This document shows positions 18,328-23,729 of a stretch of DNA of 64,000 nt, in pieces. The notes under the pieces are model-generated. The model saw only the letters and a list, made by a program, of their open reading frames with translations, was not told where the DNA came from and ran no database searches. The translations under genes and the position numbers were made by a program. The first letter of the stretch is position 1. Every line of letters starts with the position of its first letter. Source of the stretch: Oculatellaceae cyanobacterium bins.114 (lineage in GTDB: Bacteria; Cyanobacteriota; Cyanobacteriia; Elainellales; Elainellaceae); NCBI GenBank assembly GCA_033764315.1, contig JANRJA010000203.1, forward strand, positions 20,678-84,677. Reading direction: 5' to 3'.

Positions 18328-19695
18328 CTAATAGTCCTCCTTAGGTGGACGGGTGACTCGTAAAATGAGCGCACTCAATCCTAGAAACCAAATCAGGGCG
18401 ATCAAATAGGCCATTGACATTAACTTACGTACTGATTGCTTAAGGCTAACCACATAATCGGCATGAACATCTAGCCCGATCGCCCCAACCACCACTCCAC
18501 GAGAATTACGAATGGGCGCATATGCAGCAAATTGGGCACCCCGTTGATCACGACTGACAAAGGTTGTGAGGCTGAGTTGCGAGAGCCCTTGATAAATAGC
18601 CGAGTTAGATTGATCGATTGTGAATGGCTGCCGAAATGTCGTTGCCTGTTCAGGAGCAATCTTTCTTAAAACGTCTCCAATGATCAAGATCTCACGAGGC
18701 TGATCACCCCAGGTATAGCTGTAGGGATTGGCATAGGGAACTAGAGTATGCACTCGATAGAGCCATTCTTGATGGCTGCGATAGAGAGCATTATTAGTGG
18801 GTTCAGTTTGTCCAGCAAGCAGAGGAGTGCGGGTCAGGGTGGCAAACTCCTCGCCATTTACTCCATCCACTGTCGCATTCAACGCCTGCACCATCTCGCC
18901 TTTAATACGAGCAACCGTGGTCTCCCAAAGATAGTAGTAAAACCAATAAAACCCTAAAGTGACGATCGCCATATTGACAACAACAGTTGTCACCATCACA
19001 ATCCATTTAGCGCGTTGGCGCGATTGATAAAGTGCCAGTTTGGCCGCTTGACTAGCATCAATGTAGCGGTTTTGAAGCTCGGTTGGCTTAAGGTCTTGGT
19101 TGATGCTGCTTGCAAGCCACTGCTCAGCATCCTTTAAGTCGCTGCCCCGTAATAAATAGCTGTCGTTGTAGTCTTTGCGTTTCCACTCGATCGCCCGAAC
19201 CAAAAGACGAGTGTGAGCATGGATATAGTCAATATCTGTGTTGACTGCCTGGAGCAATTCTTGAAAGGCGTGATCGAAGTCATCCGTTTCTCGGAAAAAG
19301 ATCCAGTTGTGTTTGCTGATTTGAGGGTGCACTTGTTGAGGATCAAATCCCTCTCGCCGCACGATTGGCAAAAAGCGTTTGTGGCAATGAGTCGCGTATT
19401 CAATTTCATCTCGACAAACCTTAGAGGTAACTGAGTCAGGGCTAATCACAAAAATGAATGTGCTAGCAGACTCAATGCCTCGTTGAATGGCTTGCCACCA
19501 CTCTTCCCCTTTATAGATGTCATTCCAATCAACCCACGGATCTTGCCCAACCCGCTTAAATGCCCCGTCTAGCATCTCAACAAATGCTTTATCTCGACGA
19601 GAGTAAGAGATAAATACCTCGTTGGTTGGTGCTTTAGTCTCACTGGGTTGTGATTGAGTATGAACAGCAATATTAGACGATTGACCCTCAAGCAT
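18328..19695 (-). CDS. TIR-domain protein with TM - Cache/PDC-like extracytoplasmic domain - TM
   Basis: 455 aa. TIR at aa ~26-150 (VFISYSRRD; SPDSVTSKVCRDEIEYA; FLPIV). Helical module HTRLLVRAIEW...LLRGSDLKDAEQWL. Hydrophobic spans at aa ~231-256 and ~425-445 bracket a ~170-aa domain ending RDQRGAQFAAYAPIRNSRGVVVGAIGLDVHADYV. Confidence 0.85.
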   Translation of the reverse strand: MLEGQSSNIAVHTQSQPSETKAPTNEVFISYSRRDKAFVEMLDGAFKRVGQDPWVDWNDIYKGEEWWQAIQRGIESASTFIFVISPDSVTSKVCRDEIEYATHCHKRFLPIVRREGFDPQQVHPQISKHNWIFFRETDDFDHAFQELLQAVNTDIDYIHAHTRLLVRAIEWKRKDYNDSYLLRGSDLKDAEQWLASSINQDLKPTELQNRYIDASQAAKLALYQSRQRAKWIVMVTTVVVNMAIVTLGFYWFYYYLWETTVARIKGEMVQALNATVDGVNGEEFATLTRTPLLAGQTEPTNNALYRSHQEWLYRVHTLVPYANPYSYTWGDQPREILIIGDVLRKIAPEQATTFRQPFTIDQSNSAIYQGLSQLSLTTFVSRDQRGAQFAAYAPIRNSRGVVVGAIGLDVHADYVVSLKQSVRKLMSMAYLIALIWFLGLSALILRVTRPPKEDY

Positions 19696-19925: not shown

Positions 19926-22706
19926 TCACGGTTTCTGCTGAAACTGTTGACAAGTGTTTTGAGCACCTGCGATCGCGTCTTTTTCAGACGGAGTCAGTTT
20001 TGCATTCAAGTGTGCCAAGAAACTATAACCTTGAAACTGATTACAGGCGATCGCTAACCACCGTTGCCAGGTCATATCGTGCCAAAGATACAGCGTGCCC
20101 ATCTCATCTCCAGTCACAATCGTGTGTCCGTCAGGTTGAAAAGCAACGGCAGAGATGACTTTACCTTGTTCTCTAAACGCCTGCCCCAGTGGATTGCCGT
20201 TGGTGTCCCACAGTCTCAGAGTGCCATCTTCACTGGTGCTCGCGATCGTTTTTCCATCAGGGCTATAGGCAACAGCCGTGATATAGCCTTCATGTCCTTG
20301 AAACGGACTGCCCAACAGCCTTTTTGCCTCGACATCCCACTGCCGCAAAATGCCATCGCCCCCTGCACTCACCACCACCTCTCCCGTTGGGTTAAAGGCA
20401 ACAGCTGCAATGCCAAACTGCTGCTCTTCTTGAAAAACGGCTAGAGAACGCCCTTGCAGATCCCACAGGCGAATGGTGGAGTCATCGCCACTACTGGCAA
20501 TCAAGTCTCCCTTTGGGCTAAAAGCCACCGATCGGACGCTGCTTTGATGTCTCTGAAAGGGTTGCCCTATCGGTCGCTGTTCTTTGACGCTCCATAACTG
20601 AATTGTGCCATCGTCGCTACCACTGATAACCGTTTGACCATCGGGGCTGAAGGCGACCGATTGAATCGCCCCATCATGCTCTACCAAAGGTGCTCCGAGA
20701 GGTTGCCGTTGCTGCACATCCCAAAAGCGGAGTGAGCCATCAGCTCCAGCACTGACTAAAACGGTACCAGAGGGATCAAAAGCGATCGCATTCACCCCAT
20801 CTGAATGGGCTTGCAACGGAGAACCAACCTGTTTCCCAGTGATATCCCAAAAGCGAATGGTGCCATCGTCACTGGCACTGGCAAAGGTGCGATCGTGGGG
20901 ATTAAAGGCGATGGATGGAATAGCATCGTCATGGGCTGACACCCGTTGACTTGTCATCAGATTTTGCACATTCCACAGGCGAATCGTGCGATCGGCACTG
21001 GCGCTAATCAAGGTTTCGCCATCTAAGCTAAACACAGCAGGAAAGACAAACCCCTCATGTCCGCGAATGGGGGTGCCGATCGCGTTGCCCTGCAAATCCC
21101 ACAGGCGAATGGTGCGATCGTTACTAGCACTAGCGATCGTCTGACCATCGGGACTAAAGACAACGGCTTGAATGGCAGATTCATGCCCAATGAACGGTAA
21201 GTCGATGGGGTTGCCCTCCAAATCCCATAGACGCACCGTGTTGTCACTTCCTCCACTGATCAGCTTTTGACCATCAGGGCTAAAGGCAACGGTCAATACG
21301 GCACCGTCATGCCCTCGAAAGGGTTCTCCCTGCGGTTGTCCTTGACGATTCCACAGGCGAATGGTGTCATCTACACTGCCGCTAGCGATGATTTGACCAT
21401 TAGGGCTAAATACAACACTATACACAGAGTCGCTGTGCCCCTCAAACGGTTTTCCGATTGCCTGCCCTGATACATCCCATAGGTACACCTTCCCATCATC
21501 ACTCCCGCTGACGATCTGCTGGCTATCAGGGCTAATTGCCAGTGAGTTTACAGCCCGATTTTGGGCTTGAACTGATTCGCCAATCCGATGTCCATCTGCT
21601 GTCCATCGCACAATCCTACCGTTGGCATCACCACTGACAATCAGTTGCCCATCAGGACTCCAGGCGATCGCATAAATTTCGGAGTCACTCGCCTGAATTG
21701 GTTCCCCAATCGGCTCACCCGTTTCCAAATTCCAGAATCGCAGAACACCTTTATTATCAGTACTCGCTAATCGTGTTCTATCTGGATTCAGGGCGATCGC
21801 ATAGATCTCTCCCTCATGCCCCAACAAACGGTCTTTTTCTCGATTGCCCTGAATCGCGCTGAGTAAACTCGCTCGTGCTTCATCAAAGACCTCCTGTGAA
21901 GGGTTTTGTAGACTAGTACCGATCGTGTGTAGTGCCAAAATCAATCCACTGGTTGGCTTTACCGCCATCAAATTATTGACTCGTGCGACTCTTTCCCGTA
22001 ACTCTGCCTCAGCTCGTCGATGGTGTTCTGCCTTACGATATTGCTCAAATGCAATTAGGGTTGAAGTTGCCGTAATCACCAACCCCAGTGAAATGGCACC
22101 TATCGTTAAGCGTTCTCGTCGAACCACTTTGCGGCTGGTACAAACAAAATCGATCTGCAAGGGCGCAGGTTGAGGATCTTTAGTTCCTGCCTCAGTCAGC
22201 CATCGTTCTGCCTTTCTTAAGTCACGGCCTCTCAGCAAACAACTTGAGTCTTGTCCTTGCTCCTTCCATTCGTTGGCTCGCACCAACAGCCGAGTGTGAA
22301 AGGTAACGTGTTCCAGGTCGGTTTCGAGTGTCTTGATTAACTTTGCAACCGATTCATCAAAGGAATTCGTTTCTTTGAAAAAAATCCAGTTGATGGACGC
22401 CAAGGTTGGATGAACCTGGCCGTATTGCACCTCTTTGCAGACGATCGGGATAAGCCGCTTACTAGAGGCGACCGCCAGTTCTAACTCAATACTGCATTCT
22501 CGTGATGCCACCCATTCTGGGCTGAGCACAAAAACAACCGCATTGGCTTGTTTAATGCCATCAGCAATTTCAGCCCGCCAATCCGCACTGGGGGGAATAT
22601 CTTCCCAATCGATCCAGACATCCTTACCCTGCCCCACTAAAAAACTGTGGAGTTTATCAACAAATTCCTTATCTCTACGACAGTAGGAAATAAATACATC
22701 TGTCAT
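19926..22706 (-). CDS. TIR-domain protein with hydrophobic span and 14 WD40 repeats
   Basis: Start moved to ATG 22706 (GGAGG 4 nt upstream; the track ORF extends to 22808). 926 aa. TIR motifs VFISYCRRD, SPEWVASRECSIELELA and LIPIV. Helical module HTRLLVRANEW...LLRGRDLRKAERWL. Hydrophobic segment LTIGAISLGLVITATSTLIAF at aa ~200-220. Fourteen ~42-aa WD40 units (GH..V..VAFSPDG..I.SGS.D.TIRLWD) at ~20070-21840. Confidence 0.9.
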   Translation of the reverse strand: MTDVFISYCRRDKEFVDKLHSFLVGQGKDVWIDWEDIPPSADWRAEIADGIKQANAVVFVLSPEWVASRECSIELELAVASSKRLIPIVCKEVQYGQVHPTLASINWIFFKETNSFDESVAKLIKTLETDLEHVTFHTRLLVRANEWKEQGQDSSCLLRGRDLRKAERWLTEAGTKDPQPAPLQIDFVCTSRKVVRRERLTIGAISLGLVITATSTLIAFEQYRKAEHHRRAEAELRERVARVNNLMAVKPTSGLILALHTIGTSLQNPSQEVFDEARASLLSAIQGNREKDRLLGHEGEIYAIALNPDRTRLASTDNKGVLRFWNLETGEPIGEPIQASDSEIYAIAWSPDGQLIVSGDANGRIVRWTADGHRIGESVQAQNRAVNSLAISPDSQQIVSGSDDGKVYLWDVSGQAIGKPFEGHSDSVYSVVFSPNGQIIASGSVDDTIRLWNRQGQPQGEPFRGHDGAVLTVAFSPDGQKLISGGSDNTVRLWDLEGNPIDLPFIGHESAIQAVVFSPDGQTIASASNDRTIRLWDLQGNAIGTPIRGHEGFVFPAVFSLDGETLISASADRTIRLWNVQNLMTSQRVSAHDDAIPSIAFNPHDRTFASASDDGTIRFWDITGKQVGSPLQAHSDGVNAIAFDPSGTVLVSAGADGSLRFWDVQQRQPLGAPLVEHDGAIQSVAFSPDGQTVISGSDDGTIQLWSVKEQRPIGQPFQRHQSSVRSVAFSPKGDLIASSGDDSTIRLWDLQGRSLAVFQEEQQFGIAAVAFNPTGEVVVSAGGDGILRQWDVEAKRLLGSPFQGHEGYITAVAYSPDGKTIASTSEDGTLRLWDTNGNPLGQAFREQGKVISAVAFQPDGHTIVTGDEMGTLYLWHDMTWQRWLAIACNQFQGYSFLAHLNAKLTPSEKDAIAGAQNTCQQFQQKP

Positions 22707-22743
22707 GGTGCCTCCAGCTTGGCGGAAGTGGCAGTTGCAAAGA

Positions 22744-23019
22744 TTAAGAAGGTCGTGGAGCCGGAGAACGTGGAGTCGGAGATGGAGTGGTCGTTTCACA
22801 GGGACCAAGACGGGAAGTCTCCTGACGCCGACAGGGAGGAGTTCTCACTGCTTTGGGTTCGCCTGTTTTGGATAGGGTGGTATGAGGCGATTCTCCTTTG
22901 AGGGCGATCGCTGCTGCATATAAAGGTGTTGTAGCAATTAACGGCAACAAAGCCCCTGTGATGAGAGTAGCTCCTAATAGTAGGCTTGCGAGTTTATCTT
23001 TATATCTAGTTTGAGTCAT
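22744..23019 (-). CDS. Small membrane protein with Pro/Thr/Arg-rich tail (91 aa)
   Basis: Hydrophobic helix LASLLLGATLITGALLPLIATTPLYAAAIAL followed by the tail ...TTTPSPTPRSPAPRPS. Its ATG overlaps the stop of the upstream gene (ATGA, 23016-23019). It ends 37 nt before the TIR-WD40 start. Confidence 0.5.
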   Translation of the reverse strand: MTQTRYKDKLASLLLGATLITGALLPLIATTPLYAAAIALKGESPHTTLSKTGEPKAVRTPPCRRQETSRLGPCETTTPSPTPRSPAPRPS

Positions 23020-23729
23020 CTTCTTCCCTCACCCCAGTTACCAGAAGGACGAACCCTTCTTCCATCAAAACGAACAATGGGTCCTTCAATGCTAGTGCCG
23101 TCTGCGTTACAAACTTCAATTTCTCTTACAATTTGCTCTTGGCCATCACTGTATACACCTCTAAAGTCATAAAGACATTCGTTGGAGTCAACAGGAATTA
23201 TGGCTATATCACCCGGAGATAGCTCCTGTGCAATTAGATCTTCACCCCAGTCGGCTTGAGTGACCGGAGTGAAATAAATTTCTAATAACGGAAGATCAGC
23301 CGTGTTTTGGATATTAAACGTTCTATCGTTGTCGTCGTAGTAGGTGTAAGTACCCTCGTCAATGCAGAGATCGACCTGATTTTCGTCAATGGGTGGTCCT
23401 TGATCAAACACACCTCGGACATCATAGAAACAGTCACTCCGACTGTCATCCACAACAATTTCTCGGACATCTCCCGGAGCAACCGAATCACCCTGCAACT
23501 TCTCAGCTTCTTCTTCCCAGGTAGATACATCGGTTGGCGAGACATAAAACTCCAACAACGTATAGTCTGTGAAGTTTTCAACCGTAAATGATAAGGGATC
23601 GCTCAGCTCATCTTGAGCCAATGCTCGTTGACCCCTAAAGGGGAAGTGCGTTGCATCGCCTCCCCAAGTCAAAATGGGTAAAGTCACAGCAGTTGCGATC
23701 AGAACTGAGTGACCCAGGTTTTTAAGCAT
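23016..23729 (-). CDS. Exported acidic protein made of two ~85-aa Cys-containing repeats
   Basis: Start moved to ATG 23729 (AGGAG 7 nt upstream). N-terminal signal-like MLKNLGHSVLIATAVTLPILTW. Repeat 1 is FTVENFTDYTLLEFYVSP..W.....PGD..EIVVDDSRSDCFYDVRGVFDQG....VDLC. Repeat 2 is FNIQNTADLPLLEIYFTP..W.....PGD..IIPVDSNECLYDFRGVYSDG....IEVC. Confidence 0.65.
   Translation of the reverse strand: MLKNLGHSVLIATAVTLPILTWGGDATHFPFRGQRALAQDELSDPLSFTVENFTDYTLLEFYVSPTDVSTWEEEAEKLQGDSVAPGDVREIVVDDSRSDCFYDVRGVFDQGPPIDENQVDLCIDEGTYTYYDDNDRTFNIQNTADLPLLEIYFTPVTQADWGEDLIAQELSPGDIAIIPVDSNECLYDFRGVYSDGQEQIVREIEVCNADGTSIEGPIVRFDGRRVRPSGNWGEGRR

Follow-up and report, generated by a model that had tools for sequence, protein, structure and literature searches.

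A TIR-WD40 protein of an Oculatellaceae cyanobacterium as a candidate single-span receptor with a periplasmic double propeller

Cyanobacterial proteins that combine a TIR domain with WD40 repeats have long been known as domain architectures, and to our knowledge the bacterial TIR proteins studied to date are soluble and respond to intracellular events. TIR enzymes that cleave nicotinamide adenine dinucleotide (NAD) need a composite active site. Among solved structures, 2YMU represents the WRAP domain of Nostoc punctiforme Npun_R6612, in which 14 WD40 blades are arranged as two seven-bladed propellers. According to a 2024 survey (PMC11350192), the membrane span and the repeat-built ectodomain of Toll-like receptors seem to be absent from bacterial TIR systems. 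A span placed before WD40 arrays is not discussed in Kaur et al. 2020 and 2021, Hu et al. 2017, Jiang et al. 2010 or the WRAP papers, and the literature searched holds neither a discussion of the topology considered below nor a named ligand for a prokaryotic WD40 propeller; the sole precedent found is the database annotation of 'periplasmic WD repeat' proteins in Synechocystis. Here, we describe a TIR-WD40 protein, P0001, encoded on the reverse strand of a 64,000-nt stretch of DNA (hereafter the window) from the Oculatellaceae cyanobacterium bins.114 (GCA_033764315.1, contig JANRJA010000203.1, positions 20,678 to 84,677, or C127:20678-84677 in our numbering of the contigs), whose assembly amounts to 6.64 Mb and is 90.7% complete.

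From its N- to its C-terminus, P0001 comprises a TIR_2 domain, a helical module, a 21-residue uncharged segment, a helical stalk, 14 WD40 units and a two-helix tail (Table 1). On balance, we favour an account in which P0001 is a receptor with N-in/C-out topology. Its double propeller, in the periplasm, would bind a protein or peptide ligand, and ligand-dependent clustering would activate a cytoplasmic, NAD-cleaving TIR domain. An earlier reading of the sequence alone (the sequence-only reading) had described a TIR domain, a single hydrophobic span, 14 WD40 repeats and a tail with Trp and Cys, and each of these particulars was confirmed, including the one 21-residue hydrophobic segment after RKVVRRER, the exact number and regular 42-43 aa length of the repeats, and the composition of the tail (W879, W882, W884, C888 and C919 at the C-terminus). 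Its statement that P0001 has no ATPase module also agrees with Pfam and NCBIfam searches, in which no NTPase family matched the protein. An AlphaFold2 model built with a 40-sequence alignment (mean predicted local distance difference test score, pLDDT, 91.9; predicted template modelling score, pTM, 0.69) shows the same succession, with a TIR fold, two helices, one long helix, two further helices, 14 blade-like strand groups and a helical hairpin.

The location of the propellers depends on the hydrophobic segment, whose 19-residue Kyte-Doolittle maximum (1.96 for LTIGAISLGLVITATSTLIAF) is the highest in P0001. In a first set of 120 homologues listed for query residues 1-300 (P0001-P0121), 113 of which are of the WD40 type, an uncharged stretch with a median length of 23 aa directly follows the helical module in 112 of the 113 WD40-type homologues. 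A clearly favourable span at the equal position occurs in the orthologue P0003 and in 109 of 121 sequences, and at this position hydrophobicity is conserved and the sequence is free to vary. The charge of the flanks is asymmetric: counted over 15 aa on each side, K+R are more numerous on the N-terminal side in 86 of the 112 homologues, equal in 14 and less numerous in 12, and in 75% of the WD40-type homologues the 12 aa before the span contain an RR pair, typically as T-R-R-Q-R. This RR pair may represent positive-inside charge only, or it could be a sign that a folded propeller is exported by the twin-arginine translocation (Tat) pathway; a Tat-type signal was not adopted, many cyanobacterial members having KRQK instead. 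In the AlphaFold model, the segment lies within one unbroken 68-residue helix (aa 182-249), in which pLDDT dips to about 68-80 at the segment, and as modelled it is not a packed core helix. A stretch of this length within one straight helix whose ends are charged has no way back to the same side, so that the TIR domain and the propellers would stand on opposite faces of the membrane. We consider it probable that the segment truly spans the membrane, with N-in/C-out orientation.

A second line of evidence comes from the proteins of the same genome that contain the TIR-helical module. Ten paralogues were found (on C241, C246, C213, C81 and C141, three in tandem on C156, and at 18328-19695 of the window), and what follows the module is exchanged between them. 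Six of the ten have a span and then a WD40 array with the same Cys-pair tail; two (C213 and C81) have a span, a CHASE2 domain (Pfam E 1e-55) and three more spans; and in the last two a PDC/dCache-type domain sits between a first and a second span. The latter are the C141 protein, in which MCP-like_PDC_1 scores above its cut-off, and the direct neighbour of P0001, in which hydrophobic segments lie near aa 231 and 427 counted from the ATG (239 and 435 on the stop-to-stop open reading frame, ORF) and the Cache_3-Cache_2 match is weak (E 0.21). In several paralogues the TIR-helical unit is present three times in tandem before the span. In the three tandem C156 genes, a TPR region is added after the Cys-pair tail. 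CHASE2 and Cache/PDC sensors are extracytoplasmic. Because these sensors lie between spans, the TIR-helical module is expected to lie in the cytoplasm, and the WD40 arrays would occupy the position of an outward sensor.

The cassette formed by span, stalk, 14 WD40 repeats and Cys tail is not restricted to TIR proteins, as it is also found behind CHAT-nSTAND1, AAA_35 and Ser/Thr kinase modules (C222, C213, C16, C248, C239, C135 and C164), with a juxtamembrane helix module before the span of the nSTAND1- and AAA_35-WD40 paralogues that is similar to that of P0001 (pairwise E 2e-5 and 9e-5). The sequence-only reading had considered WD40 repeats outside the cytoplasm to be unusual. This does not apply to the organism studied here, in which a hydrophobic span precedes 14 of the 27 WD40 ORFs and PF00400 repeats are also fused to PA14 and to RTX (HemolysinCabind) repeats (C106, C27 and C239, a set that includes a seven-bladed protein with an N-terminal signal-like peptide and a C-terminal anchor); WD40 repeats on the outside appear to be routine for it.

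The array itself gives 449 bits with WD40 PF00400 over 13 stretches, and the AlphaFold strand pattern agrees with 14 units. Its best Foldseek match is 2YMU (38% identity, E 4e-56); the 14 repeats are predicted to fold into two seven-bladed propellers, the 7+7 split being taken from 2YMU and from the model. At the DNA level, self-identity within the array reaches 45% at a lag of 126 nt and 41% at a lag of 252 nt, versus 26.8 +/- 3.5% at other in-frame lags, and the 126-nt periodicity noted in the sequence-only reading is therefore real. Tandem Repeats Finder reported nothing in the WD40 region because the 126-nt repeat is too diverged.

The distribution of cysteines also lends some support to a location outside the cytoplasm. 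C888 and C919 are the only cysteines of P0001 after the hydrophobic segment, and five others precede it. Among the 112 span-containing homologues, the last 75 aa hold exactly two cysteines in 99, none in 7 and one in 2, and P0079, the only span-less member of the first WD40-type set, has lost both tail cysteines. Depletion of cysteine in the arrays follows the span as well: in the source genome, the 14 WD40 arrays located behind a span contain 0-3 Cys per about 600 aa (0-0.5%), and two span-less 14-blade arrays of NB-ARC type contain 16 and 8 (2.65% and 1.47%). The NB-ARC-type STAND proteins on C21 and C115 have a different tail (CPCEGMNILG... or PYEGMIITG...). A search of the full library with aa 1-300 returned 26,555 proteins at E<=0.001 and 3,649 clusters at E<=1e-30, and the 99 WD40-type proteins among the best 149 matches were used for a wider comparison. 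In these, the arrays of the four span-less relatives hold 1.2-2.1% Cys (mean 1.68%), versus a mean of 0.41% and a median of 0.30% in the 95 span-bearing ones (Mann-Whitney p 0.002, a significance that, like that of the charge counts, is overstated by the shared descent of the homologues). The number of cysteines after the span is even in 78 and odd in 34 of the 112 homologues, a parity driven by the cyanobacterial members that lends weak support only. As far as export is concerned, the cysteine evidence is best regarded as supportive, but not clean.

On the cytoplasmic side, the TIR domain scores 101.4 bits with Pfam PF13676 (TIR_2, aa 4-124; cut-off 28). The alignment of 40 homologues shows E74 in all 40 and C71 conserved to at least 90%; we take this glutamate, in a C/W-x-x-E motif on helix alphaC, to be at the catalytic position of TIR NADases. 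The closest solved TIR domain by sequence is 3H16 (PdTIR, E 1.7e-5), and the MyD88 TIR is also among the PDB sequence matches. The TIR domain and the helical module are shared with the neighbouring gene (43% identity, P0001 aa 3-192), and judging from such comparisons they move together as one unit. Does this unit deplete NAD+, or could its output be of another type? In an alternative that we regard as unlikely, the topology would be as proposed, and the TIR domain would be no suicide NAD+ depleter: it would make a nucleotide signal, as in Thoeris, or act as a scaffold, as in the Toll-like receptor/MyD88 pair, for cell-cell or envelope signalling in the filament rather than for phage defence. 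Similarity to ThsB-type proteins goes in this direction and is weak: PADLOC ThsB models match at E 1e-6, the ThsB_TIR Pfam model remains below its cut-off (19.1 versus 21.2), NCBIfam ThcB4 is far below its own (31 bits versus 220), and PADLOC and NCBIfam gave generic TIR-level matches only, with no system assigned. The MyD88 match is in line with a scaffold, and ten genomic paralogues with varied sensor domains look more like a signalling family. The neighbourhood of P0001, made of genes A and B (see below), the TIR-Cache paralogue, and TetR, ChrA and PhoD-like genes, is not a defence island. In contrast, the invariant glutamate is easier to reconcile with an enzyme than with a scaffold, and no ThsA-like partner was found in the locus. 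Between depletion and signal production, nothing here separates the two.

Several observations weigh against a membrane-spanning, defensive receptor. Besides the genomic setting and the shared descent of the homologues just mentioned, the segment of P0001 is the least hydrophobic of the family: it contains five Ser/Thr and two Gly, and on the summed Hessa scale it is marginal (+0.37), compared with a family median of -1.48 and a value of -1.18 for P0003. Four basic residues lie in its C-terminal flank, and the charge asymmetry is weak in P0001 (K+R of 5 before and 4 after the segment; net charge +3 and 0). Odd cysteine counts after the span are frequent in the Chloroflexota homologues, P0152 keeps the tail pair without a span, P0042 has the span without the pair, and some span-less kinase-WD40 proteins of the source genome are poor in cysteine too. 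In addition, a search of the 90.7%-complete assembly found no VKOR (PF07884), the disulfide oxidase that cyanobacteria usually have, although VKOR was detected in a Synechococcus elongatus control; three Thioredoxin_4/DsbA-like ORFs are present (C228, C223 and C248).

Could P0001 then be entirely cytoplasmic, with a helix used for oligomerization or peripheral membrane docking, and propellers that sense intracellular proteins, as is assumed for NLR-like STAND-WD40 proteins? The marginal hydrophobicity, the charge on both flanks of the segment and the existence of a few span-less relatives (P0079, P0124, P0152 and P0212) would fit such a protein, as would the origin of the closest solved propeller (WRAP/2YMU) in a STAND protein for which innate immunity is discussed and a membrane is not mentioned. 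We nevertheless find it quite unlikely, given the clearly favourable spans of the orthologue and most other family members, in which hydrophobicity is kept and sequence is not, the single helix that does not dip into the membrane and return, the equal module and span leading to CHASE2 and PDC sensors, and the depletion of cysteine in the arrays. The sequence-only reading had left the choice between a signal-anchor and a cytoplasmic protein undecided; the signal-anchor is now favoured, by these points and by the positive-inside charge. It had also named homologues without the segment and otherwise identical as evidence to the contrary. The span is absent from only 1 of 113 and 4 of 99 WD40-type proteins in the two sets, and in these the arrays are Cys-rich or the tail Cys pair is gone. 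P0001 is a typical representative of this very large family, with an unusually weak span.

The two membrane systems of cyanobacteria share the Sec/signal recognition particle (SRP) and Tat machinery, and both compartments are oxidizing. Insertion with the same topology into the thylakoid membrane, with propellers facing the lumen rather than the periplasm, seems very unlikely to us, since the products of the co-conserved genes A and B start with signal peptides of the ordinary cleavable kind and the paralogues carry CHASE2/Cache sensors typical of cell-surface sensing, although neither point is decisive, the sequence holding nothing that tells the two membranes apart and the cysteine argument fitting either.

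Two small genes upstream of P0001, A and B, provide a further argument. The start of B overlaps the stop of A (ATGA), as in translational coupling, and the pair ends 37 nt before the TIR gene. Gene A has no Pfam, NCBIfam or PADLOC match, and its AlphaFold model (pLDDT 58) is all-beta with two repeats. Three close relatives of A were found, two in a collection of 5.8 billion proteins and one beside the orthologue P0003 (locus L001, 45% identity). The order A, B-like ORF, TIR(-WD40) gene is present in all four lineages that have A (the window, L001, L026 and L027/L028), and the outer flanks of the block differ: ChrA (window and L026) or Uma2 (L001 and L027/L028) upstream, the TIR-Cache gene (window) or DUF2358 (L001 and L027/L028) downstream. 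The only conserved feature of mature B is K[AG][VI]x[RKT]PPC-x(8-9)-GPC, followed by a Pro/Ser-rich tail in the window and L026. Neither A nor B has paralogues in the source genome, and no comparable upstream exported pair exists at the other nine TIR-helical paralogues; A, B and the receptor thus form a conserved three-gene module, and two exported partners fit a sensor that would face the same compartment. The suggestion of the sequence-only reading that A and B are partners of P0001 gains support from the recurrence of the block; that they act as its ligands is the part that we infer.

Searches with A in genome contigs and metagenome contigs gave no related locus. Of 400 other cyanobacterial genomes searched, 17 contain distant, single-domain A-like genes, which in 16 of the 17 are not beside TIR or WD40 genes. 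In the exception, L006 (G156:C1:3159070-3162351), the A-like gene is beside a WD40-encoding fragment at the edge of the locus. At L027:1905-4755 and L028:1412-4262, the TIR-WD40 orthologue is split into a 145-aa TIR ORF and an 809-aa helical-span-WD40 ORF, with a frameshift located exactly at FEYVA|HTRLLVRA, the boundary between the TIR domain and the helical module, and with identical DNA in a metagenome of the Joint Genome Institute (JGI) and a run of the Sequence Read Archive (SRA). This split could be due to decay, to a natural two-protein version or to recoding.

As for the gene itself, the listed ORF that spans P0001 is 19926..22808 (-), and the sequence-only reading had proposed that this start is probably wrong and that ATG 22706 should be used. 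The product from this ATG begins with MTDVFISY, a GGAGG lies 4 nt 5' of it, and the orthologues P0003, P0007, L026 and L027 begin with MTDVFISY or MTDAFISY. Because the TTG extension to 22808 runs into the 3' end of gene B, ATG 22706 is the true start, as had been proposed. Over the full-length alignment P0003 is 60% identical to P0001 (63% over aa 1-300). A scan for promoters and terminators gave a result no better than that of shuffled sequence.

Table 1. Coordinates of the features discussed, in the window unless a locus is given; aa, residues of P0001
Feature	Position	Strand	Description and basis
P0001 gene, complete	19926..22706	-	ORF list and translation; 926 aa
TIR domain, aa 2-128	22323..22703	-	Pfam TIR_2 E 6e-29; E74 in C71-x-x-E74, putative catalytic Glu
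Helical juxtamembrane module, aa 129-198	22113..22322	-	HTRLLVRAxEW ... LLRGxDLxxAExW ... P.PxxLQ; AlphaFold helices 131-149, 160-175, 182 onward
Predicted single span, N-in/C-out, aa 200-220	22047..22109	-	segment LTIGAISLGLVITATSTLIAF; RKVVRRER directly before
Helical stalk, span to first propeller, aa 221-293	21828..22046	-	AlphaFold helices to 249, 251-265, 271-287; conserved in homologues
14 WD40 repeats, aa 294-885	20052..21827	-	in-register units of 42-43 aa; Pfam WD40; Foldseek 2YMU
C-terminal two-helix tail, aa 886-926 (41 aa)	19929..20051	-	AlphaFold helices 880-898, 906-924; C888 and C919
Downstream paralogue TIR-Cache	18328..19695	-	TIR_2 E 1e-26; TIR, helical module, span, ~170 aa Cache/PDC-like, second span
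Gene B	22744..23019	-	small predicted exported protein; signal peptide, PPC-x(8-9)-GPC loop
Gene A	23016..23729	-	predicted exported protein; signal peptide ends ALA|QDE; two ~85-aa repeats with two conserved Cys each
B-like ORFs	L001:5720-5926, L026:3026-3313, L027:1622-1825		between A and TIR gene

Taken together, these observations can be assembled into the following mechanism. P0001 would be a single-pass type II membrane receptor, with the TIR domain and the helical juxtamembrane module in the cytoplasm and one long helix that crosses the cytoplasmic membrane at residues 200-220. The stalk, the two seven-bladed propellers and the two-helix tail would be in the periplasm, where a C888-C919 disulfide probably staples the tail. 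The ligand of the propellers would be periplasmic and most likely a protein or a peptide, with the products of A and B as the best candidates; binding or release of this ligand would alter the oligomeric state of the receptor and bring TIR domains together into a composite active site, following which NAD+ would be depleted or a nucleotide signal made. The paralogues with three tandem TIR-helical units suggest that packing of TIR domains against each other matters. More tentatively, as a possibility that we hold rather doubtful, the A-B-TIR/WD40 block could be a self-contained alarm from periplasm to cytoplasm, a bacterial counterpart of a Toll-like receptor, in which B and/or A would be a ligand, a co-receptor or a guarded decoy of the periplasmic propellers, whose binding, loss or cleavage would switch the TIR NADase; by extension, most of the 'NLR-like' cyanobacterial proteins in which TIR, CHAT-nSTAND1, AAA_35 or Ser/Thr kinase modules precede a span and WD40 repeats would sense outside the cytoplasm.

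The significance of the family, which rests on sequence analysis only, lies in its size and in its architecture: within 3,649 clusters, a TIR unit is wired via one predicted span to WD40, CHASE2 or Cache modules. If the propellers are periplasmic, a layout like that of Toll-like receptors would exist in bacteria, and the WD40 arrays of many cyanobacterial proteins linked to 'apoptosis/immunity' would be surface rather than intracellular sensors. The small A-B-receptor module would then be a tractable case for finding the ligand of a prokaryotic WD40 propeller.

How does P0001 compare with known systems? Its nearest counterparts are the cyanobacterial and Chloroflexota TIR/WD40 proteins (e.g. 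of Leptothoe, Oscillatoria sp. FACHB-1407 and Sodalinema), which are similar in architecture and length and share 33-63% identity over aa 1-300; nothing essential differs, except that the A-B pair is found only in the orthogroup of P0001. The WRAP domain likewise has 14 WD40 blades and is the best structural match, but it constitutes the C-terminal end of a STAND ATPase protein, with blades that are almost identical to each other, whereas those of P0001 have diverged and are preceded by a TIR domain and a predicted span, with no NTPase. For lack of a P-loop NTPase between effector and repeats, a STAND/NLR-like receptor was rejected as a description of P0001; the nSTAND1 or AAA_35 paralogues are elsewhere in the source genome. 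Thoeris ThsB, AbTir, PdTIR (3H16) and SpbK have the TIR fold and the conserved glutamate in common with P0001, but are soluble, and assignment to Thoeris was rejected, the ThsB model being below its cut-off and no ThsA-like gene being present.

Receptors of the ToxR/CadC and PknB types, the latter with PASTA or WD40 domains outside, have the same predicted arrangement, with an N-terminal cytoplasmic output, a single span and a C-terminal extracytoplasmic sensor; their output is a DNA-binding or a kinase domain, and that of P0001 a TIR domain. Ser/Thr kinase-span-WD40 proteins with the layout of P0001 are encoded in the source genome as well. Finally, Toll-like receptors resemble the receptor predicted from the sequence of P0001 in their repeat-built ectodomain, one span, cytoplasmic TIR domain and an expected proximity of TIR domains driven by the ectodomain. 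They differ in that their ectodomain is made of leucine-rich repeats and that they are type I proteins with a signal peptide and a C-terminal TIR domain, whereas P0001 has WD40 repeats, an N-terminal TIR domain, a predicted type II orientation and no signal peptide. Unlike Toll-like receptors, P0001 also keeps the glutamate typical of NAD-cleaving TIR domains at the catalytic position. P0001 is therefore an analogue of Toll-like receptors, with no homology beyond the TIR fold: it is not a member of this family, but may work in a similar way.

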